NCBI GenBank assembly: GCA_964252035.1
Contig: OZ176205.1
DNA: 64,000 nucleotides
Origin: Podarcis erhardii
Taxonomy: Eukaryota
Strand: one strand, 5' to 3'
Shown: positions 5,262-64,000 of the stretch, piece by piece
Position numbering within the stretch: position 1 is the stretch's first letter
How the letters are laid out: each line of letters begins with the position of its first letter
The notes under the pieces: model-generated
Database searches by the model: none
The model's input: the letters and a program-made list of their open reading frames with translations, nothing else
Told to the model about the DNA's origin: nothing
Translations under genes and position numbers: made by a program

Positions 5262-5636
5262 AAAAAGGTAAAGGTAAAGGACCCCTGGATGGTTAAGTCC
5301 AGTCAAATGCGACTATGGGGTTGTGGCACTCATCTCGCTTTCAGGCTGAGGCAGCCAGCATTTGCCCACAGACAGCTTTCTGGGTCATGTGGCCAGCATG
5401 ACTAAGCTGCTTCAGGCACAACGGAACACCCTGATGGAAACCAGAGTGCACTGAAACGCTGTTTACCTTCCCGCCGTAGCAGTACCTATTTATCTACCTA
5501 CACTGGCTTGCTTTCAAACTGCTAGGTTGGTAGGAGCTGGGACAGAGCAATGGGAGCTCACCCCATCACGGGGATTCGAACTGATGACCTTCTGATCAGC
5601 AAGCCCAAGAGGCTCAAGGGGTTTAGACACAGCACC
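5262..5636 (-). mobile_element. Sauria SINE
   Basis: (ACCTTT)n tail seen as AAAGGTAAAGGTAAAGG; tRNA-like head with B box at the right end; flanking AGCCCTGGA/AGCCCTAGA. Confidence 0.9.
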
Positions 5637-7191
5637 AGCCCTAGACGGTCTCATTAGCTGCCTACCCAGGCCAGAGGTCCCCCACCTCTGTTGTGATATC
5701 TGCCTGAAAAAAGCTTGACTGGTTGAGTTTGTTTTGCTTTTTACTGTTGTGCCTGAGAATATATTGGAGAGAGCATAAAGATTTCAGAACGATTCCTCTT
5801 GCTGTTGAACTCATTTGGAACTTTGCATTCTTTCCTCACATCTGTGAAACGTGCCTCCTATTGCTTGCACTTTAAGATCCCAGAATATTCAACTTATTCG
5901 TGTGCCTCCTCCATGTGAGGTCCAGAGGGTGGCAACATAAGAACAGGCCTTTTCTACAGTGGTTCCCCATTTATGGAATACTCTCTCCAGGGAGGCTCTC
6001 CTGGCTCCTTCATTACATATCTTTAGGCAGCAGGCAAAAATGTTCCACTTCAACCAGGCTGATTAATATTCTCCAACATTTCAAATGTGTTTGTTGGGGG
6101 GGGGGATGTTTTAACTATTTACTTGGGTTTTTACCTTGTATTTTATGCTGTGAACCACTGTGAGATTTTGTGATGAAAGGCAGTATATAAATTTAGTTAT
6201 TTAGTTATAATAACTTAATATCTCTGATCTGCCCAATGCATCTCAGTGTCTTGTATTTTCCATGCCAATTTCCTCTTTGATCCGTTTCTCTTGCTCTTGT
6301 GGTGCTCCATAGGGGGGAAAGCTGCTTTCCCCCTCTCTCATATGATCACAAATTGCCTTGATGTGTGAATGACAACAGTAGGGGGTCCTGGGAGGGCAGG
6401 TCTGGTCAACCACTTTGCCCCAGAACCATAACAATTCAAAATATAATAAGCCCTACATGCTGTAGAAAAATCAGGACAAATGGACACCTGGAATGATTAA
6501 AGCACTAAAAGGAAATAGAATAGCTCCAGAAAGGGAGGAAAAAAGTATAATGATTAAGGGCACGTGGATGTTGAAATTTTTACTATGTGATCTTTTGATA
6601 TATCATGACATTAGTTGCATTCAGACAGCGCTCCCCCCGCCCCCATTTTCCTGAAGTTTCCTTGCCAGATAATTTCTCTGTGTTGTTCTATCTTTCACAC
6701 AATGCAGAAGCCACTTCTGGAAACCTAGCAGAATCTAGAGGGGAATTTCATGCTCATTTCAGTGTTCATTGCTTCCAGAAAAAGATCTGTTTGCAACCCC
6801 ATTAATCCAGATAATCACAGGGTGGAGGTGGGGGTGGGGTTGCATTGTAATCTCTCTGCAGTTTACACAGATTGTTCCATGTGATGAAATTTGGGTTGAT
6901 ATTCCAGCTACAGTTCTCTCCCACCATTTTCATGGGTGAATCATGAGGGAACAGAAGCACACATGCACAAAAAGGGCGGTGACACGTCCAGTGTTGTCTC
7001 ACACCACTCCCACTGATGTGAATGAAATTTAGAATGGCATGGCAGTATGTTGACCAAAAAGCCATAGTTCCATAATGCAACAGGTAATGCAGTGTACAAG
7101 AAATGTTAGAATCTAGGACTGAAGTCCTAGCATCATAAGCAGGAAAACTAACACTGTAATCTCCATGTCTGAATGCACCCACTATTACGTA

Positions 7192-12430: not shown

Positions 12431-14057
12431 GTAAACTATTGTCAAGTGTAAAGTATTGTTTGTACTGCAGGTGCTGAGACTAATTCAACGAATCATACTA
12501 ATGATGTGGGGTTAGATCTAGACATACTCTTTTGTGGATGGAAAGCCTCCCAATGTTGGAAAAAGGGGAAAGCCTCCTACATTGTTCAAGAGATCCCAAA
12601 CCCATCATGAACAGGAAGATTTAGCACCCCCTCTCAAAAAAACTTTAAAAATCACAATGAGTAGGCATGGACAAAACTGTCAATGTTTGTTCTCCAAGTT
12701 TCTCATTTTTTCCATTCTTAAATTCAGTTCTCCACTTTTCCACAATTTGTGACCCTTAAAAAAATAATATCATGAGCATTCATCAGCATATGAATATGAA
12801 TTTCTCTTACTAAACATACTTTGTGTGCAGTTTTGACTAATTTTTGCAATCAATTTCCCCTTCTCTAACTTATGCTGTGTGTTATTTGAACTAATATATG
12901 CAGAAAACTACTGTGGAAAACCCCCAGAGTTAGCAGTACACATTTAGCCATTCTCCATTTTAAACCTTCATTAATACACACAGGGTTTTCCCCATTTCTG
13001 TGTCAATTAAACCAATTATACTTAACAGGTCCTGCTTCCAGGCTTTTAAGAGGCACCTAGCTGGCCACTGTCAGAACAGGATGGGAGAGTAGATGGGCCT
13101 TTGGGTTCTTCTTATGTTCTTAGAGAAGAATCACATCTGACTGGCATTCTTGTCAAAATGATTTCATCGTTATAAGGCTGTTTCCAACATAGTCACCTCT
13201 CAGCTGCAGATCACCATGTTACTCAGTAAGCCAGGAACTAACAAATGGCACATAACTGACCTCTTGCTTAATGAAATCTCTGTCTCCCTCTCTCCAACAT
13301 TTTTATTGGTTCATTATGTGAAGCATCGGGAAATCTGTGTTTCCTATCCGACAGCTCAACATAAAAATTTAAGCGCTACTAAACGCAAATGCAAATGTAA
13401 ATGCTGGTCTTCTGTTAAAAGCAAGCTAACACAAATTAATAGTGTCAGGAATCTTTACTGGAAAATAACAAAAATATATTTGAAGGGCTTCATCAGCACA
13501 TTCCAACACTTACGGTGGTTTAGCTGAGGTCATGTTGTTCTTGGACAAAATTCACTGTTCTTAAAAGAGGTTGAATCTCACTGATCATACACGTTCACAA
13601 TTTGTTTTATAGTTGATTTAGAAAAAAAACAACAGCAACACATGCTCAGCTTGGCCTTTTGGCAATTGTTCTAGCTGGTTCGCTCACCTAAATTCTCTAT
13701 GGGCCTCTTATTGGATATTTGCATAGCAACATATTTTAGCCAAGAGCCTTTGCTGATGCTGGAGATTCTAGCTCCCTGCAAACTTGCAAATGCATCATCA
13801 TCAGATTCAGCACAGAAATACACTAAGGTTCACACAGATGGCGGCCTTTGTACAATTGCGCTTGAGAGCATATGGAGTCGCTGGCAGGCTTGCAGTACAT
13901 CCAGAATTGCAGTGACACCTCCATGATGCTCAGATGATGGCTGAAATTGTAAGGCCACTCAAAAGCGATCCTGTGATTTCACAAGTCATGAGAATGACAC
14001 AGACAGACAGCAAGTGAAGGCAAATGTTCATACCGACAATGTCTCCAACATGAAATA

Positions 14058-14303
14058 GGGACGCGGGTGGCACTGTGGTCTAAACCACTGAGCCTCTTGG
14101 GCTTGCTGATCAGAAGGTCAGCAGTTCGAATCCCCATGATAGGGTGAGCTCCCGTTGCTCTGTCCCAGCTCTTGCCAACCATGCAGTTCAAAAGCACACC
14201 AGTGAAAGTAGATAAATAGGTACTGCTGCGGCGGGAAGATAAACAGCGTTTCCATGTGCACTGGTTTCTATCATGGTGTTCCGTTGTGCCTGAAGTGGTT
14301 TAG
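14058..14303 (+). mobile_element. Sauria SINE, 3'-truncated
   Basis: Head GGGACGCGGGTGGCACTGTGG; B box GTTCGAATCC; body matches the other copies; no tail. Confidence 0.9.
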
Positions 14304-14837: not shown

Positions 14838-15142
14838 AAGACAAAAAAATCCGTAAGAGAATAGAAAATTGCAGTTTTGGAAACAATTTTGTACTTTACT
14901 TGGCTGAGCTTGAGAATTCCCCACCCCCAACTTACAACCACCAGGAACGATGCCTCGATGCCTGCATCAGGAAAATTTTGGGCAACACATGGCAGGGCAG
15001 AGTCAAACAAAGATGTGGTGTCCCAAGCCCACATTCTCAGCATGTTCACACTCCTGCCTCAGTGACATCTGCTCTAGCTTAGTTTATGTCAACAGAATGG
15101 AAGGTGACAGGATCCACAAGGACATGCTCTACGGAGAGCTGG

Positions 15143-15753
15143 TGTGATGGCCTGGGATTCAGACTTGGAGGCTGAGCCTGAGGAATCTCAGCCTACACAG
15201 GAGTCCCCGCCTCCAGAACCAGCTGAGCCGGGGCTGGGGCTTGAACTTGAAGGGTCCTCACCTGTGCTGGATCCTCAGGTGCAGGCACCAGCTGAGTCTG
15301 CTCTGGCTCCTGAGGTGATGGAGGACCCATTGCCTGCAGGTACTCCACTCTCAGCCCCATCAGGGGAAGCTGAGGTTGCCTCTGGGTCTGGTAACCCTCC
15401 AGCCTCTCCTGAGCTACAGAGGCTCAGGGCAGAGAGGCAGAGGGAACTAAGTTCCCGCAAGAGGAGTGCTCGCCTCCAGGCCAGGAGAGGCGAGTCACCT
15501 GTGGACCAGGGCTGCCCTATGCCTCGGGGCAGATAAAAGCCAGCCAGCCCCAGTCCCAGGTTGTGGAAGCAACATTGTTGGCAGCCTGTTCCTGCCTGCA
15601 CCCTCCTGTCCTGCTCTCCTGCCAGAGTCCTGACCTCACCCGACTCCCTGCCTTGGACCCTGCTTCAGCTTTGACGGACAGCCTCCATACAGCACCCTCG
15701 ACCTCGGACTGGACTCGGACCTCGCTGCACAGTTAACCCTCGGGACCAGCACA
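15143..15753 (+). mobile_element. Solo LTR, family A (611 bp; probably Gypsy-type, clade not proven)
   Basis: TG...CA termini; perfect 5-bp TSD GCTGG (15138-15142, 15754-15758); TATA-like GATAAAA at 15532; homologous to 48870-49480. Confidence 0.9.
15144..15536 (+). CDS. LTR(U3)-encoded 130-codon acidic Pro/Glu/Ser-rich frame with a basic C-terminal motif (retroelement-derived, not a host gene)
   Basis: Open from LTR base 2 to TAA; SPELQRLR..RSARL..GESP.DQ shared with 48871-49296 through synonymous codon changes. Confidence 0.6.
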   Translation: MMAWDSDLEAEPEESQPTQESPPPEPAEPGLGLELEGSSPVLDPQVQAPAESALAPEVMEDPLPAGTPLSAPSGEAEVASGSGNPPASPELQRLRAERQRELSSRKRSARLQARRGESPVDQGCPMPRGR

Positions 15754-16142
15754 GCTGGCTTCAGGAATCAGATCCACCAGGTGACCAACTTTGTGTTACA
15801 ATGATGCAAACATAACATGAAGGCTGGCAACCCCAACTCTATTGTGTGGGAATCCCTTGCAGACAACCACAATGCCTGGAGATAGGGATCCATAACAGTG
15901 CCCAGAGGAGGAATGACTACTAGGTGGGGTGCGGAAAGAAGAAATGTCATGGTGCACCTGAAGCAGCACAACCAGATGCCTTCATCTGCCCCAGCTGCAA
16001 CAAAACATGTCTCTCTTATATCAGTCTCTACAGTTACAGCAGGCACGGCAAACTTCCATCAGTTTGACTTTAATCCCAAAAGCACACTCTTCCATTGTCT
16101 CCTGAGACATATGGATGCTAACAACAGTTAATATGTTGTTTT

Positions 16143-16494
16143 AAAAGGTAAAGGGACCCCTGACCATTAGGTCCAGTCGCGGACGACTCTGGGGTTGTGG
16201 CGCTCATCTCGCTTTATTGGCTGAGGGAGCTGGCATACAGCTTCCGGGTCATGTGGCCAGCATGACTAAGCCACTTCTGGCAAACCAGAGCAGCGCATGG
16301 AAATGCCATTTACCTTCCCACCGGAGCGGTACCTATTTATCTACTTGCACTTTGATGTACATTCAAACTGCTAGGTTGGCAGGAGCAGGGACCGAGCAAC
16401 AGGAGCTAACCCTGTTGTGGGGATTCAAACCGCCGACCTTCTGATCAGCAAGCTCTAGGCTCGGTGGTTTAGACCACAGAGCCACCCGCGTCCC
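16143..16494 (-). mobile_element. Sauria SINE, full length
   Basis: Complete head to tail; 13-bp TSD TAATATGTTGTTT (16129-16141, 16496-16508). Confidence 0.95.
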
Positions 16495-48377: not shown

Positions 48378-48869
48378 CCCACCTCTACAGACGTTCCAGC
48401 TTGTCAATATCCTTCTTAAATAGTGGCACCCAGAACTGTATTCCGGGTGGGGCCTTGACCTTGGTCTGTACATTATACTTCTCTTGATGCAGCCTAGAAT
48501 AGCATTAGCCTTTTTTTGTTGCTGCATCACACTGTTGACTCATGTTAAGCCTGTGGTGTACTAAAACTCCTAGGTCCTTTCCACATGTACTGCTGGCAAG
48601 CCAGATGTCCCCCATCTTATATCTGTGCAGCTGGTTCTTCCTGCTTAAGTGCAGAACCTTACATTTGTCCCTGTTGAAATTCATGTTGTTAGTTTGCTCC
48701 AAGTCAGTAGTGCCACTGCTGCTTATGAGGAAGTACAGCAGGAGGGGCAAGGTTGCAGGAAGATTGGTGCAATGGGAGCACACCTGCAGGAGCATTAGAT
48801 TGGTTCCACCCAGTGACAAAGCTGCATGCTCCAGCACCGGGGGGTGGGGTGGGGTGGAGAGCAGGCGGG

Positions 48870-49480
48870 GGTGATAGCCTGGGACTCGGGCTCAGACTCG
48901 GAACCAGAGGAGACTCAGTCTGTACCGAATCCTTTGCCTTCATCTGAACCAAGTCTGGGGCCTGATCCTGAAGAGTCCCAGTCTGCACAGGTTCCCGTGC
49001 AACAAACACCAGCTGGGCCGAGTCAGGGGCCTGAGCCTGCCCTGGCTCCAGATGCGGGGATGACCTTGTTTCCTTCAGCTGGGCAATCACTTACAGCTGC
49101 TCCACTACCAGTTGGGTCAAGAGAGGTTGAGGCGGCCCCTGGGTCTAGTAACTCACCGACATCTCCCGAGCTGCAAAGACTAAGGTCTGAGAAAAGGAGA
49201 GACCTGAATACTCGCAGGAGGAGTGCTCGCCTTTGGACGAAACAGGGTGGTGAGTCGCCAGGGGATCAGGACCGGCTGCTATCCCGACAAAGATAAAAGG
49301 CTGTCGGACCCCGCCCCAGGTTGCGGGAGCAACATTGCTGTATGCTAGATCCTGCTTGAGATCCTGTACCTGTCCTTGCCTTGTTTCCTGCCTCGTGGCC
49401 CTGCCTTGGCCCTGTCAGACTGACTCCCAGTGGAAGCTTTGGATTCTGGACCGGTCCTGGACTGTGGTTCACGGGTTACC
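48870..49480 (+). mobile_element. LTR, family A, second diverged copy; 3' end lost or interrupted
   Basis: Colinear with 15143-15753, including GATAAAA and CCCAGGTTG.GG.AGCAACATTG; no terminal CA or TSD found. Confidence 0.8.
48871..49296 (+). CDS. LTR(U3)-encoded 141-codon acidic frame ending RRRSARL...R-stop (retroelement-derived)
   Basis: Open frame VIAWDSGSDSEPEE...SPELQRLRSEKRRDLNTRRRSARL...GESPGDQ; paralog of 15144-15536. Confidence 0.6.
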   Translation: MIAWDSGSDSEPEETQSVPNPLPSSEPSLGPDPEESQSAQVPVQQTPAGPSQGPEPALAPDAGMTLFPSAGQSLTAAPLPVGSREVEAAPGSSNSPTSPELQRLRSEKRRDLNTRRRSARLWTKQGGESPGDQDRLLSRQR

Positions 49481-49728
49481 CAGTGGGGACGTGGCTGGCA
49501 CGCATCCTGGGGGCGTGGCGCGTGTCCCGGGGCCATGGTGTCCCACCCCACAGTGGTGTGGCATGTGTCCTGGGAGCGTGGCACGCTGCCTGCGGGGGCG
49601 TGGTACCTGGTGCAGTGGGGGGATGCGGTGGGGAGTGCTCAGCACATGTTGGGAAGGCGTTCACGATGGTACCCCCCTCCCTGATGGTGCTGGGGGCAGT
49701 ACGCTCCCCCCCGTTTCTCCACCAGTGG
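49481..49728. mobile_element. GC-rich hAT-like MITE abutting the LTR
   Basis: CAGTGG start; repeated GGG.GCGTGG motifs; imperfect right end; TSD unclear. Confidence 0.4.
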
Positions 49729-50875: not shown

Positions 50876-51115
50876 ATCACTCTACTGACTGAGTGATCCT
50901 CTGTTTGTTTTATAATGGTATGCTAGAGTGTTGTAATCCATTCTAGGACCTTATGGGAAAGGCTGGGTAAGATATACAGTACTGTATATAAATAAATGGC
51001 TTTTAAAAGGATTAGGCAGATACATGGAAGATTTAGTGGTACAGTTTGATTCAGGACTTAATGGTCTCTCCCTCTTCACTGGGTTGTGCATTTTACTTCA
51101 CAATGTTGTAGGCCA

Positions 51116-51784
51116 TTTTTATACATCTTTCCTAATTTTGCCGGAGATGTATAAAAATGCCGATAATAGCTGTTGGAGATGTAAAGGCAAGATTGGGACC
51201 TTTTTTCATATCTGGTGGACCTGTGATGTAGTGAAGGAATTCTGGGGAAAGGTGTATGACGAATTGAAAAAAATTCTGAAGTACAGCTTCCCGAGAATAC
51301 CTGAGTTGTTCCTCTTGGGCATGACTGGTGAGGAAATAAAAAAACCGGATCAAACTTTCTTTCAATATGCCATAGCCGCTGCGAGGATCTTGATTGCGCA
51401 AAAATGGAAATCCCCTGACATGCCCACGATTGGAGAGTGGCAAGTGAAGCTATATCAATATATGGAATTGGCGAGATTAACTCAGAAAATTAGGCAAAAT
51501 AATACAACGAAACTTAAAGATGAATGGAAGAATTTTTTAATTTATATTGAGAATAATATGGGAATTAGCAATATAACAGCAGACGATAATTGATACCTTC
51601 GATGTACTATGCTATTGTAAGTTCTACTGCGGAGATTGTATCATGGTTATGGTTATGTAATCCTAAACCAAGCTGGATGGAAGTTGGTTTTATCGTTTTT
51701 TTTCTATTTTCTTTTCTGTTTTGGTGAATTTTGTTCTCTGCTATCTTTTCCTTTTTCTTTTTTGTAACTACTTTTTCTAAATAA

Positions 51785-51821: not shown

Positions 51822-52793
51822 AATGTTGTAGGCCAGCTCTGCTGCATTTGCAGGCCCTCCTACTCATTCTTCTGGGTCCAGGGCCCTACAATGATGGTGC
51901 CAGTAGACTGCCAAGTGCTGTTAGCTATGAGAGCTCCATGGAATTTCCAGGTTCAGAGGCCAAGTGACTCAGAGTATAGGATTCTTGGGGAGGAAGAAAC
52001 TAAAGAAGGGCAGTTGCATTAATGCTTATGAGCTTTCTGCTTAATGCTTATGAACTGCCTTCTGGTTGGTCACTGTTGGCCCAAGAAAGGTGGACTAGTT
52101 TGTTGTTTGGTCTAATGCAGCAGGCCTCTACTTGTGTAACCTCAGCATCACACCATGAAATTTGGGGAATTAATTGTTCCTTAGTCCATGCTAACAGAAA
52201 CAAGCAAAATGCTAGAGGAACATGCAGCTGTGATTTGTGTTGCATTTTTAATTCATAAGTGAAAAGTCTTGTAAATTTTTGCACCAATGCTGTTAATATT
52301 TTATGTAGTAAAGTAATGGCAAAATATTTCCTAATATTATATGTCAGCAATAAAGACCTTGCAAATCAGACTGCCCCTATACTGCTATTAAATGAGTGTT
52401 TATCTCTTGTTATTAATTTATACCTCCATGTAATGAAAGGGCAGTTTATATCATAAGAAGACATATAGCTGTTGTGCTGTTTATGCTTTAGTAATAATTA
52501 TGCTGCATTTTTTTTTTTAATGTTCAGATATGTAGACCTCTATTATATTGGGTGAGGAAGTGCTAGATGAATTATGGGCTTATTCTTCTGTTCAATTACT
52601 CCATTTTAATAATCTCATTAGCATGAATCTTGTTTACATGTAGAACAAAATTTAAGGGATGATGGTGATGATCATCATAGTAAGGATAAAGAGATGGTTT
52701 GCAGGAATTGGAAGCCTTATCAAAGATCAAAGATCACCAAAAAAACCTGCTGGGCCCACGTATTAAATAAAGCACTAGCTAGATTCCATAAAA

Positions 52794-53139
52794 GGGATGT
52801 GGGTGGTGCTGTGGTGTTAACCACAGAGCCTAGGGCTTGCTGATCAGAAGGTTGGCGGTTCGAATCCCTGCGACGGGGTGAGCTCCCGTTGCTCAGTCCC
52901 AGCTCCTGCCAACCTAGCAGTTCAAAAGCACATCAAAGTGCAAGTAGATAAATAGGTACCACTCTGTGCGCTGCTCTGGTTTCGCCAGAAACGGCTTAGT
53001 CATGCTGGCCACATGACCCAGAAAAACTGTCTGCGGACAATAGTCAGCTCCCTCGGCCAGTAAATTGAGATGAGCGCCACAACCCCAGAGTCGTTGGCAA
53101 CTGGACTTAACTATCAGGGGTCCTTTACCTTTACCTTTT
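52794..53139 (+). mobile_element. Sauria SINE, full length
   Basis: tRNA-like head with GGTTCGAATCCC; (ACCTTT)n tail. Confidence 0.95.
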
Positions 53140-56620: not shown

Positions 56621-57959
56621 TACTGGTTCAGGAAATGCAAATTAAGTAGGCTCAGATGAATTTCTCTCCCATACTTAAACAACCGGAAAAACAAAGACCC
56701 TTATAACTAGCTTCTGGCGCTGCTGAGGTGCTTGGATTGAGCTCTGCTATCTGAGCCAGCCTCCCACCAAAGGAGCAAGCAGGTGGGAGGCACAATGATG
56801 GTTTCAGGTCAGAGAGCCCTGAGATCGGGTGCTCTTCCAAGTGTAGAGATGATTCTCTGGAAGCTGACTTGGCTGCACTGCTGTTGTGTGATGGCATCAG
56901 GCCTGACTATCATGCTCTCTCCACTTTCTGCTGTGAGCAGTTGACCTGAGGACATGCTGATGTCTCCACCACTCTGCAGAACCCCACTAGCAGGGGTTGG
57001 GTGTTTAGATTTCACCCTCAGTTGCACACACACCTCCCTCGAGGCAAAGCTGACTTTTGCTTGAGGAATTATTCTGTGCAACAAAACTGACTGCATTTTA
57101 AAAAAAACTTGATGCTTATTAGTTGCCGAATTTGGAGTGGGCCATTCCCTCGCTGTTTTATAAACCAATAGCGGAATGCACAGATTAAAAACAACACTGA
57201 TTGGATATGGCAGTCAAATAGGTACATGGTGCAAAGCAGCAATCATCCTAGAACAAAACATTCCTGCCACACACTTCTTAACTAGGTACAGCTCCTGCTG
57301 TTTTTCCCATTTTCAAAAAAAGTTCATCAGCAGGTGAACTGGAATTCAGAAGAAGAAAAAATTAAAGACCATTTTTATTTGCATATGTTGCAGGAAGGAA
57401 CACGGGGAATAAGAGTCAGTCCCAATAAAAAGCACAACTGATGTGTGAATGTGAACAAAAGAAGGCATTTATTTGCAAAGTTCTTGTAAATGTATTATTA
57501 ATGCAGAAGAGAGAATGCACAAGAACAAACCCACAGGCATCAGACTTCTCTCTCTTGGCATTACATCTCCACCTACGAGTGCTCTGATCTTCCTTCTTGT
57601 CTGGCTGCTAAGGATTTTGTGAAATAGCTGGTTCAAATATATACATTTCATATTCAACATTCCCCCCTTGCATTCATATTATGCAGTTTTTACCCACCAT
57701 AGAAGGGCCTTGATGTGCAGCTGTATGTGCAGAGGCACTGTTTATGCAAAGCACTGTACCTTTCCTTGTGGGGTTTGAGTTCAGTGTCACTGCGATGCCA
57801 GGTGGTTGACACCAAGTCTGCAGGGAGTGGGGGAGACAAGGATGTGGCCCACTGACACTCAGTTGCTCCTACGGGAGGCAGCGATGACCGCCAACTTGGA
57901 TGGCTTAAAAAGAGAATTGGACAAATTTATGGAAGAGAACATTATTAGGCCCAATGGAG

Positions 57960-58222
57960 GTGGTGGAACCAACAGTAGCTCGCTGTGACTTATTTGCAAA
58001 GCATTTTGAGGATAAAATCACTTGCATCCACCAAGATCTTGACTCTGCTGTTATAACAGATGAATCTCATGGGGTGTTCAGAACACAGTCTAGTCCTGTT
58101 GTGTTGAATGAATTGCAATTGGTAAGGTTCAAGGAAGTGGACATGGTGCTCAGAGCGGTCAGGGCAACTACTTGCACTCTAGACCCTTGCCCCTCTTGGC
58201 TGATAAAAACCAGCAGGGAGGG
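57960..58222 (+). mobile_element. L2 ORF2 internal fragment, between two CR1 3' pieces (57868-57950 +, 58232-58330 -)
   Basis: CDLFAKHFEDKI..I...RATTCTLDPCPSWLIK is the L2 pre-RT motif; the neighbouring NLDGLKRELDKFMEE is a CR1 C-terminus. Confidence 0.8.
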
Positions 58223-58535
58223 AAAAGCTGGCAGCACTCTCCCTTCTACTGGTTTCCAGCAACTGGTGTTCAAAGCATTACTGCCCTTGACCCTGGAAGC
58301 AGGATACAGCCATCATGGCTAGTAGCCATTGCTGTTTGGTTTCCCACAGGCAATTTGTTGGCAACTGTAAGAATCAGGAGGTGGGCCTTTGATTTCATCC
58401 ATCTGCCTCTGAACTGACGAATCTGTCAAATCTATCAATTTCAGCTCTTTCAGTTTCTCATCTTTCTAATCTTAAATTCAGCTACCCAATTCCCCACAGG
58501 AACTTGCTAATGTTACAAGAAGTCCTCGTGAAAAT

Positions 58536-60290: not shown

Positions 60291-61445
60291 ATCAGAGAAT
60301 CAGAAGTCCATCTAGTCCTACCCTGTGCCATGCAGGAATCATCGCTAAATAATCCCTTACCGGTGGACATCCAACCTCTCTTTAAAAACCTCCAATGAAG
60401 GAGTGTTCACCACCTTCCATGGTAGTCCATTCCGCAGTCAAATGGCTCCCACCATCAAAAAGTTATGTTTAGTCAGAATCCATTTAAATTGAATCCGTTC
60501 ATTCAGGTCCTTCCTACCCTCTGGAGCAGCAGAAAACAAACTCACTGCATCTTCCATGTGGTATGCAAGGCCTCTCATTTTTCTCTTCTCCAGGCTAAAC
60601 ATACTCAGCTTCCTTAACCATTCCTCATAGATCTTGGCTTCCAGACCCTTTATGTCAGGGGTCAGCAAACTTTTTCAGCAGGGGACAGGTCCACTGTCCC
60701 TCAGACCTTGTGGGGGGCTGGACTATATATTTTTTAGGGGGAGGGGAATGAACAAATTCCTATGCCCCACAAATAACCCAGTGGTGCATTTTAAATAAAA
60801 GCACACATTCTACTCATGTAAAAACACCAGGCAGGCCCCCAAAATAACCCAGGGATGCATTTTAAATAAAGGACACATTCTACTCATGTAAAAACATGCT
60901 GATTCCCAGACCATCCGTGGGCCAGATTTAGAAGGTGATTGGGCCGGATCCAGCCCCCAGGCCTTAGTTTGCCTACCCATGCTTTATGTCCTTGGTCTCC
61001 CTCTTCTGCACACATTGCAGTTTGTCAATATCCTGCTTAAACCCAGAGCTGGAGACTACACTGCAGGTTCCCACCTGACCAAGGCAGAATAGAGTGATAC
61101 TATTACTTCCCTTGATCTGTACACTGTACTGCTGTTGATGCAGCCTAGAATTTTTGCTGCTGCATCACTCTGTTGACTTATGTCAAGCTTGTGGTCTACC
61201 AAGACCCCTAGATCCTTTTCACATGTACTGCTGTCAAGCCAAGTGTTCCCCATCCTATATTTGTGCATTTGGTTATTCCTGCCTAAGTGCAGAAGCTTAC
61301 ATTTGTCTCTATTGAAATTCATTTTGTTATTTTTGGTGCAGATCGCCAATCTGTTAAGATCATCATGAATCCTGATTCTGTCTTCTGAGGTATTAGCTAC
61401 CGCCTGCCAGTTTTGTGTCATCTGCAAATTTGATGAGCATCCCCC
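60291..61445 (-). mobile_element. CR1 LINE 3' fragment with RT motif, interrupted by a hAT MITE
   Basis: Minus strand KFADDTKL, then MNFNRDKCKLLHLG...EKDLGVLVDHKL; CR1 tail at 60291. Confidence 0.92.
60656..60981. mobile_element. hAT MITE
   Basis: Perfect 8-bp TSD CTTTATGT (60648-60655, 60982-60989); CAGGGGTCAGCAAAC / GTTTGCCTACCCATG ends; internal ~60-bp tandem duplication. Confidence 0.92.
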
Positions 61446-62809
61446 ATGGATGTGATTTTGTTGTTGGGTGCAGATAGATGATAAATAGATGATATTCTGT
61501 ATCTATATTTTCTTTTTCTTTTTTTGTATCTTAAAACCACTTAAACTACTATGTTAATGTCTTTCAAGTTCAAGAAAAGACTGCTGAATCTCATTAAAAT
61601 GAAGTTAAGCATCTTTGTTTGTTTTTTTTAAAAAAGAGGTGAACTACACTCTATTTTTCAAAAGTAAATTATTAGGACATAAAATGTGTCATGTTCTTTC
61701 CTCTGAACTTTAGATATTCGTTTATTTGCAAGGGATAGGGGAATTCAGGGTCACAAAGCTGCAAAAAATCAACATCATTAAGCTCTATACTTTATTTATA
61801 TTGGTGGATTAATATAATATATTTTTAGTTGGGATTTAAAGTCATAGTTTGGAATTAAGAATTACTCTCTTTCCTGGTCCATGACATACATAAAAAACAA
61901 AGGAACCAATATTGATCAGTACAGATTGATCCCAACAGCCTAACCTACCTCACAGGGTTGTTGTGAGGGTGAAGTGAAGGTCAGGAGAAGAACCGTGTGC
62001 TCCAACTAATCAATCAATAAACACACACACACACACACACACCAACATGAGGCTACAATGGGAAATGCCGCACCAGGAACTGGAATTTGCAGATGCCTCT
62101 GACTGTCAGCAAGTCATCCAATAAAAATCAAATTGAGAAGCACACTTTTTAAAGATGTAAGCTGATTTACTTCTTAGATATTTGGTGAAGAGAGCGCCAT
62201 GTGCTGTTTCATTCAAACTCTATCACATTTCAGCTCTTTCTTATATGACATAGCCTTTTGGTAATACAGGGTGATTTTATGGGTATTTCATTTTCATTGA
62301 TTTAAGTTAAATAAAATGATGGGGTGATTTCTTTTTTCTTTTTCTTTTTAGCTGAACTGCAATAAATATTGAGAGACACTTTTTGTAAGGAATTTGAGCT
62401 CCTCATGTTAACACCCAGCACTGGATCTATCCCAGCACACTGGTTCTCTATGGTTGTGATCCTATACACATTAAACTGAGGCAAATTCCATTTAATTCAG
62501 CTGTGCTGTCAGGGGCTGGACTGAGGGGGGGGGCAGCACCCCCCTTCGACTGAACCTTCCCGAGAACAGGAAGACAGTATAGATTTAGAACAGTGGTTTG
62601 CAGAAGGGCATAGTTCAGAGGCTGCAGAGAGGAGAAGCTGGGAAATATTGGGAGAGGAGCGGGAGGAAGAGGAAGCACCAGGGGAGAGTCAGCTGACAGA
62701 CTCAGTGTCTTTGGAAAGCATTCCTGACCCCCGCCCTCCCAGGACCAGACGAGCATTGAGGGTAGCAGAAAGCTCAAAGGCAGAAAGCTCAGATTAGCTG
62801 TCTCAGGGG

Positions 62810-63227: not shown

Positions 63228-63347
63228 CTCAGGTGTGATGTAGAATAGGAGAGACGTACATACGGGGTGGGACTTTACTTGGAGCAACTCCATTATCTAC
63301 GAGAGACCGCATTCCTTTCTCTCTCTCTGTGAATATTGAATAAACTA

Positions 63348-63693
63348 CACGGGTGGCGCTGTGGGTTAAACCACAGAGCCTAGGACTTGCCGATCAGAAG
63401 GTCAGCAGTTCGAATCCCCGCGATGGGGTGAGCTCCCATTGCTCTGTCCCTGCTCCTGCCAACCTAGCAGTTCGAAAGCACGTCAAAGTGCAAGTAGATA
63501 AATAGGTACCACTCCGGCGGGAAGGTAAACGGTATTTCCGTCTGCTGCTCTGGTTCACCAGAAGCAGCTTAGTCATGCTGGCCACATGACCCAGAAGCTG
63601 TATGCCAGCTCCCTTGGCCAATAAAGCGAGATGAGCGCCGCAACCCCAGAGTCGGCCACGACTGGACCAAATGGTCCAGGGTCCTTTACCTTT
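63348..63693 (+). mobile_element. Sauria SINE inside the LTR
   Basis: GGGTGGCGCTGTGGG head, GTTCGAATCCC B box, CCTTTACCTTT tail. Confidence 0.95.
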
Positions 63694-64000
63694 AAGAACT
63701 CTTCTTGTTTACCTGCTTTTTGGCATCCCACTGGGGGAGGGATAGGATTCCCTGAAGCCTTGACATGTGCTTACTTTTGAATATACATGTTTAGGATGCA
63801 CAGCAAGTCTTCGGTTTTACACACACTTACATGGGTGTATAAATGTTCAATAAAACAAAAGAATTAGATGGTTGAATTTACATTGCTGGTGGTGGTTTTA
63901 TTTGCAATTGAGTTCTGTGTTCTGTTTTATTAAATATTAATAAAATTATTAAATAAACAGAGTGACACACAACTCTAAAACGTCTGTCTCCAAACTGAAA

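Follow-up and report, generated by a model that had tools for sequence, protein, structure and literature searches.

LTR copies in the window

The window, a stretch of 64,000 nucleotides from the lizard Podarcis erhardii (contig OZ176205.1), holds two diverged LTR copies, a solo LTR of subfamily A and a damaged LTR of subfamily B, each with a reading frame through its U3 region (Table 1). Copy B begins with GG and its natural 3' end is lost at about position 49481, which leaves its target duplication unreadable. In both copies the frame is open from LTR base 2 to a TAA within the ATAAAAG box, and the lengths of 130 and 141 codons given in a preliminary description of this DNA were found to be exact. 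The same holds for its comparison of the two translations: 23 residues are identical (of 31 aligned), 12 of these are encoded by a different codon, and all 12 differences lie at the third position. Openness is confined to this one frame, since the remaining five frames across the same U3 contain 2-10 stops each. The constraint on spacer codons 26-83 was weak, and the spacer differs in length among the subfamilies by whole codons.

The window copies are members of large groups. About 2300 first-look candidates were obtained in the genome for each window copy (2372 for copy A), of which 40 were scored; those scored for copy A were 93-94% identical to it. A pattern made of the TATA-like box plus the R start gave 2225 exact matches in the genome, and the reversed control gave none. 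The window also contains fragments of reverse transcriptase and several copies of a repeat of about 350 bases, which, from their appearance, we take to be LINE-like and SINE-like, respectively.

Table 1 Features of the window; positions are counted from its first base
Feature	Position	Strand	Remarks
Solo LTR, subfamily A	15143..15753	+	TG..CA ends; Tf1/sushi-type Gypsy chromovirus, by sequence
5-bp target duplication GCTGG, flanking copy A	15138-15142 and 15754-15758		
U3 reading frame, subfamily A	15144..15536	+	130 codons; in a 3' LTR very probably the C-terminal tail of Pol/integrase
Acidic, proline-rich spacer	15144..15392	+	codons 1-83; 18 D/E, zero K/R
Conserved basic block	15393..15476	+	codons 84-111; purifying selection; HMGN-like motif at its end
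KRSARL (copy A version of the motif)	15459-15476	+	
TATA-like box ATAAAAG	15533..15539	+	stop codon TAA of the frame lies inside the box
Putative R start	15563..15573	+	decayed version of the sequence that pairs with the element's own primer-binding site
LTR, subfamily B	48870..49481	+	first base and 3' end damaged
U3 reading frame, subfamily B	48871..49296	+	141 codons
RRSARL in copy B	49216-49233	+	
Reverse-transcriptase fragment, presumably LINE-like	48505-48891	-	
Reverse-transcriptase fragment, presumably LINE-like	50937-51593	-	
Reverse-transcriptase fragment, presumably LINE-like	57909-58322	+	
Reverse-transcriptase fragment, presumably LINE-like	61056-61502	-	
Repeat of ~350 bases, presumably SINE-like	5263-5640; 14054-14303; 16138-16494; 52790-53139; 63347-63699		several copies

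Identity of the element

Judged by sequence, the window LTRs belong to a high-copy, self-priming Gypsy chromovirus of the Tf1/sushi type. The LTRs have TG..CA ends and the target duplication could be read in 37 of 43 copies of subfamily A, 24 of 36 of subfamily B and 15 of 17 of subfamily E. In whole elements (L091 and L092), gag carries the Pfam domains DUF4939, Retrotrans_gag and zf-CCHC, and pol carries, in this order, RVP_2, RVT_1, RT_RNaseH, Integrase_H2C2, rve, SH3_Tf2-1 and Chromo. The order is thus gag followed by PR-RT-RH-IN, and no env was found by the Pfam domain scan of these whole elements. The chromodomain stands at the integrase's C-terminus (PF00385, E 8e-15) and keeps three aromatic cage residues, Y/W/Y, when compared with the cage as given in the available text of PMC3605345.

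In L091, 10 contiguous bases of the primer-binding site are complementary to a sequence located 30 bases past the TATA-like box. Such a self-priming arrangement is a described feature of Tf1/sushi elements, according to the accessible sections of PMC6317226, and the match predicts that the lizard element primes itself as well. Because the self-primer sequence begins 30 bases past the box, the frame lies wholly in U3; the same spacing would make the ATAAAAG box a promoter element.

The tree, one of integrase and chromodomain, holds none of the named Sushi-ichi and Amn-san references and does not resolve at its base. The lizard element has much in common with the Tf1/sushi vertebrate chromoviruses (V-clade: Sushi-ichi, Amn-san): the DUF4939/Retrotrans_gag type of Gag, the PR-RT-RH-IN order, the Tf2-like SH3 domain, the chromodomain, self-priming instead of a tRNA primer and the 5-bp duplication. 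Unlike them, it adds a selected extension of 110-140 codons through U3, whereas the fish relatives among the matches have a basic stretch of the RGRP type and mostly a short extension. Copies of the element are scattered along chromosome-scale contigs.

The expression layout was found to differ between sister subfamilies. L092 has gag and pol in different, overlapping frames, while L091 and many copies of subfamily C have a single fused gag-pol ORF of about 1620-1630 codons.

Continuity of the frame with pol

The U3 frame is almost certainly the C-terminal tail of the integrase, read in frame with pol. A pattern combining the G-rich (polypurine) tract with the LTR start gave 394 matches in the genome and none with the reversed control. 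Among the first 30 of these loci, the LTR frame was open across all 504 codons held upstream in 19, a stretch which spans the integrase zinc finger, the catalytic core, the SH3 domain and the chromodomain. In a further four loci the chromodomain or part of it was in frame, and the remaining seven were out of frame just before the tract. Young full-length copies (subfamilies C and D) have no stop in pol between the chromodomain and the LTR, so that the polypurine tract is read through and 111-117 codons of the 3' LTR are included. The LTR pairs of the whole copies L091, L092 and L094 are 99.7-100% identical, and the pol ORF of L091 and L092 terminates 114-117 codons into the 3' LTR. The start of the frame, for which the preliminary description had pointed to full-length elements, thus lies upstream in pol, from where it runs through integrase and chromodomain.

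At locus L151 a subfamily A LTR was also found to follow this polypurine tract and the remains of an integrase, the one real case among the five distinct places returned by the tract search for this subfamily. No subfamily B LTR was seen on an internal region in the corresponding pattern search, which gave two matches behind a G-rich tract, neither of them internal by its flanks; the link of this subfamily to pol would follow from homology. Since the genomic RNA includes the U3 of the 3' LTR, and this U3 is then copied to both ends of the element, every LTR, solo LTRs included, carries the frame. Translation coupled to pol would be possible only from the 3' copy of a whole element.

In 10 of 56 junctions (L066, L068, L069, L077, L081, L084, L086, L154, L155 and L208), the G run just before the polypurine tract has 7, 9 or 10 bases rather than 8, which puts the tail out of frame; this set includes loci picked by protein similarity, and homopolymer or assembly errors are possible as opposed to slippage. 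Sense-strand RNA reached a depth of up to about 5 over the integrase in two bulk runs and one contig spans the junction between tract and LTR, in a data set of four runs (three of RNA and one guessed to be RNA) that is too thin for expression of the tail and silent on translation.

The preliminary description had spoken of a protein or protein tail, and of a possible accessory gene comparable to nef or sag. Of these, the tail stands, by continuity of the pol ORF, and the accessory gene was not sustained: two whole elements and 19 of 30 loci show the frame continuous with pol, and env is absent from the element. We consider it improbable that a separate small protein is also, or mainly, made from the ATG at LTR codon 2 via a subgenomic or read-through RNA. 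This ATG stands in a strong Kozak context, an in-frame ATG past the junction is found in the lacertid family, in Anolis and in Rhineura, and LTR sequence is present in RNA of both strands. However, the ATG falls within the terminal bases recognised by the integrase and is missing from the snake tails and from most members of a second lineage (see below), the putative promoter of the element lies downstream of the frame, and the four low-depth runs showed no splicing into the start of the LTR. Moreover, the continuity with pol accounts for the frame without a second gene.

Selection on the U3 frame

Selection was evaluated on 125 distinct LTR copies in which both the start and TATA/R could be recognised (43 of subfamily A, 36 of B, 17 of E, 24 of C and 5 of D); copies without these landmarks were excluded, and A and B are enriched for the best matches to the window. 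The frame was open as far as the motif in 97 of the 125. Modal distances from LTR start to motif were 318, 354, 288/318, 288 and 270 nt, all of them whole codons. At the level of subfamilies the length changes therefore preserve the frame, as had been anticipated from the two window copies, but this does not extend to single copies, where 17 of 26 departures in length shift it.

For the codon-position analysis the DNA was aligned without the help of protein sequences, and no block was picked beforehand. The minimum number of changes among the five subfamilies was 54/51/93 at codon positions 1/2/3 (third position, 93 of 198), to be compared with 201/191/186 for the rare variants in old copies (186 of 578; Fisher p = 2e-4). 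The claim that U3 codes for a protein under purifying selection was borne out by this excess of fixed third-position changes. The signal was strongest in codons 84-111, with 7/2/18 against 39/57/30 (p = 4e-5), a block that was chosen after the fact. Codons 1-25 gave a lesser signal (p = 0.015), and neither spacer codons 26-83 (p = 0.54) nor codons 112-130 (p = 0.3) reached significance.

Estimates of dN/dS gave the same picture. Between subfamilies A and B the ratio was 0.06 in the 28-codon basic block (dN 0.078, dS 1.27, 24 scored columns) and 0.80 in the spacer. It is the terminal basic block, rather than the acidic part, that carries most of the selection; the acidic spacer is near neutral. 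When L091 was compared with L092 (subfamily C against D), the tail showed a dN/dS of 0.36, while values of 0.02-0.09 were obtained for RT, RH, IN and SH3/chromodomain; constraint on the whole tail is much weaker than on these enzyme domains. Among 50 McDonald-Kreitman tests with all within-group variants as the reference, only that on the A-B block was significant (p = 0.003), because the within-group variation includes selected lineage structure and a transition bias.

The codons of RRSAR are identical in all five subfamilies, and a promoter constraint at the DNA level may be layered on them. The last codons and the stop of the frame differ between subfamilies. Taken further, these observations could mean that the read-through is harmless and that the block is conserved as a promoter element of the U3 DNA, with no selected protein function: about 60-75 bases separate the unchanged RRSAR codons from the TATA-like box downstream, the spacer is near neutral, and the end of the frame varies. 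A three-base periodicity of fixed changes (7/2/18) would not be expected from such an element, though, and the length changes among subfamilies would not need to be whole codons. In addition, the signature is repeated in a second lineage, where synonymous sites are saturated, and the motif recurs as protein in Anolis. Conservation as DNA only is improbable and has been largely refuted by these data.

A second lineage in the same genome

Twenty stretches of other chromovirus families of this genome were read, several of which are broken or have no locatable chromodomain motif. In two of them, with the border set by LTR pairs, the frame reads 109 (L211) and 100 (L217) codons into the 3' LTR, and L210, L213 and L218 share this end. 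On either side of the polypurine tract, the 3' end of this lineage (e.g. L211, 7164-7491) encodes an acidic stretch; it also has a basic motif of 38 codons, with a conserved Cys-Trp and a lysine/arginine cluster at its end, that is unrelated to RRSARL. For the last 38 codons of the five copies, dN/dS was 0.05-0.29 in 8 of 10 pairs, dS being saturated in 2. This lineage provides a second, independent example of a U3 tail under selection, with a basic motif of its own.

A further family (L190-L196 and L221), 95% like the Podarcis lilfordi protein P0181, has an acidic-then-basic integrase tail of 140 residues. A large share of the older chromovirus matches was found on contig C19 (30 Mb), which would fit a repeat-rich sex chromosome.

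Relatives in other vertebrates

Relatives were taken from 150 matches of 50%-identity representatives and from the best 120 of 1358 matches of a profile search. Among the matches listed, squamate integrases run 100-120 residues beyond the chromodomain, with a G-x-x-x-D-S/G-V junction, an acidic stretch and a basic end; such tails were found in Rhineura (P0007), Vipera (P0020), Crotalus (P0157, P0165 and P0168) and Anolis (P0158-P0162). Placed solely by the junction motif, the tails of Anolis, Rhineura and the snakes would also sit in LTRs. An ATG after the junction follows the distribution described above.

The five integrase clusters of Anolis carolinensis have the chromodomain, a G-D-S-V-M junction and an acidic tail of 103-115 residues. 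Two of them end in RRSARIAAK and the others in RRSLRIAAK, RQSLRIAAK and RRNLRIAAK; an arginine or the serine is thus missing from two of the five, and the alanine is replaced in a third. The rest of the Anolis tail aligns poorly with the lacertid tail, the integrases themselves are far apart (branches of 0.36 and 0.28 per column), and the Anolis tail used as query against this genome gave no matches. Among the matches listed, 94 new proteins had a chromodomain that could be located, and 3 of them, all from Anolis, contained the pattern R[RK][ST]xR[LIV], and none was seen among the 50%-identity representatives listed. RRSARL was absent from the tails of Rhineura, Crotalus and Vipera, although these are acidic-then-basic too. 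In the integrase tree (29 rows), the lacertid family, Anolis, the vipers, Rhineura and the second lineage form a polytomy, and descent and convergence of the lacertid and Anolis motif are for this reason not separable.

Many amphibian and fish matches have short extensions or ends that were apparently fused to unrelated exons by gene prediction, and in several fish matches an RGRP stretch is followed by a short, SPE[YF]-like terminal tail. The fish-type integrases P0097-P0099, P0111, P0123, P0124 and P0147 (Labeo, Hemibagrus and Prochilodus among those named) carry RGRP repeats behind the chromodomain, which we assume to be AT-hook-like, and a short conserved SP-x-aromatic end past a G-rich junction.

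An HMGN-like motif in the tail

RRSARL was found in 74 of the 97 open-frame copies and in all 26 of those from the young subfamilies C and D. The lizard tail thus contains the core that defines the HMGN motif, RRSAR followed by L or I, a likeness that the preliminary description had overlooked. In HMGN2 this core (residues 22-26, RRSAR) is the part that cryo-EM resolves on the acidic patch of the nucleosome, as described in the available text of two reports (PMC12487698, PMC13347269), which also give the HMGN consensus as RRSARLSA and the related sequences of Dsup (RRSSRLTS) and Dot5 (RRSARIAT). Dsup and yeast Dot5 bind the acidic patch in the manner of HMGN, and changes of the Dot5 arginines abolish binding, according to the accessible part of the second of them (PMC13347269). 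The ending of the Anolis tail is alike to the Dot5 motif at 7 of 8 positions. Lizard element, HMGN2, Dsup and Dot5 have in common the RRSAR core with a hydrophobic residue, within a low-complexity protein region; the lizard motif differs from that of HMGN in standing at the end of a transposon integrase.

No wider similarity of the tail to HMGN was detected, no Pfam family scored above the cut-off, and a PDB sequence search with the 30-residue block gave 0 matches. PP1_bind (E 0.13) and EF-1_beta_acid (E 0.06) were sub-threshold Pfam matches in the tail and were rejected. The ESM Atlas search returned leads for the chromodomain only, below 0.9. A complex prediction of the tail block with H2A and H2B of this genome scored 0.02, which speaks neither for nor against binding; AlphaFold 3 also fails on the HMGN2-nucleosome complex, as stated in the available text of PMC12487698.

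We propose, with a probability of roughly 55%, that the conserved RRSARL end binds the acidic patch of the nucleosome as an arginine anchor of the HMGN type. The tail would stay on the mature integrase, the acidic, proline-rich part serving as a flexible spacer whose length need not be exact. The arginines would dock in the H2A-H2B acidic patch as they do in HMGN2, Dsup and Dot5, tethering the integration complex through a second chromatin contact beside the chromodomain with its intact cage residues. A flexible spacer with a nucleosome anchor is suggested by the binding of the Dot5 and Dsup motifs and by the precedent of foamy virus Gag, whose arginine anchor occupies the acidic patch and whose loss of this anchor redistributes integration sites (PMC9040877, available text).

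The basic block has two arginine clusters in a bipartite-like spacing and is nearly free of lysine. It is possible, if rather unlikely, that the integrase tail carries this block mainly as a nuclear-import signal or as a general patch for binding DNA or RNA, and that the likeness to HMGN is incidental. The spacing of the clusters would suit an import signal; all squamate tails seen are acidic and then basic, with a basic sequence specific to the lineage, and the lysine/arginine end of the second lineage is strongly selected. The NLS region of the Ty1 integrase is said to target integration. A large disordered C-terminal half has also been described for that integrase (PMC8487063, in part). On the other hand, an import signal tolerates the exchange of K and R and needs no S-A-R-L/I-x-A-K/R, yet precisely this sequence is shared by the lacertid and Anolis tails, whose alignment is poor elsewhere, and the lacertid block is nearly without lysine. 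The acidic-then-basic tails without RRSARL elsewhere suit a looser basic function equally well.

Returning to the HMGN-type anchor, we give an even chance to the broader proposal that at least two distant lizard lineages carry it in a coding module of U3, with an integrase that reads nucleosomes through both the chromodomain and the acidic patch. If so, a transposon integrase would mimic a chromatin protein of its vertebrate host, and the HMGN motif, shown outside HMGN for Dsup and Dot5, would extend to a mobile element.

Comparison with known systems

The preliminary description regarded coding in the LTR as a departure from a non-coding norm, and in this respect it needs correction. In the plant CRM group A and in beet Bingo, pol runs into the 3' LTR and a CR targeting motif encoded by the LTR replaces the chromodomain, according to the available text of PMC3605345 and PMC3059260. 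The lizard element and these plant elements (CRM group A with its CR motif, including Beetle, and Bingo) have the extension of the pol ORF into the 3' LTR in common. CRM group A has the CR motif instead of a chromodomain, is primed by tRNA-Met and has centromeric copies; by contrast, the lizard element keeps the chromodomain with the tail behind it, has a self-priming site and is spread along contigs. These likenesses suggest that the LTR-encoded integrase tail is of a kind known in plants, here in a vertebrate element.

Short arginine anchors to the acidic patch are also known from the chromatin-binding site of foamy virus Gag, KSHV LANA and CMV IE1. Those motifs are located in Gag or in herpesvirus proteins, not on an integrase, and are not LTR-encoded. 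The lentiviral nef and the MMTV sag are separate genes of env-bearing retroviruses, with coding sequence that overlaps U3. The lizard frame shares with them the coding use of U3, and differs in being continuous with pol and in belonging to an element without env.

No report of a U3-encoded tail of a vertebrate chromovirus was found in the searchable, largely open-access full-text literature, nor was an integrase or retrotransposon with an HMGN-like motif found there. The available text of a paper on LTR models that covers Sushi LTRs contains neither 'ORF' nor 'open reading frame' (PMC3601003), and a survey of frog elements, in its accessible part, describes Amn-san chromodomains without a tail (PMC4131045). 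Few studies deal with the choice of insertion sites by vertebrate Gypsy elements, and the chromodomain usually counts as the last domain of the integrase. A selected tail with an HMGN-type motif amounts to a short peptide that is directly testable for nucleosome binding.

The frame is carried by thousands of lizard solo LTRs that count as non-coding, and analyses of these families based on LTR dating or promoters should allow for selection at the codon level. UniRef entries named 'Gypsy retrotransposon integrase-like protein 1' already contain the tail, unremarked, and the public proteins nearly identical to those of the element come from Podarcis. In Podarcis muralis, the gene predictions P0003, P0004 and P0053 fuse the 5'-LTR copy of the frame to gag; these spurious proteins probably arose in annotation because the U3 frame is open.
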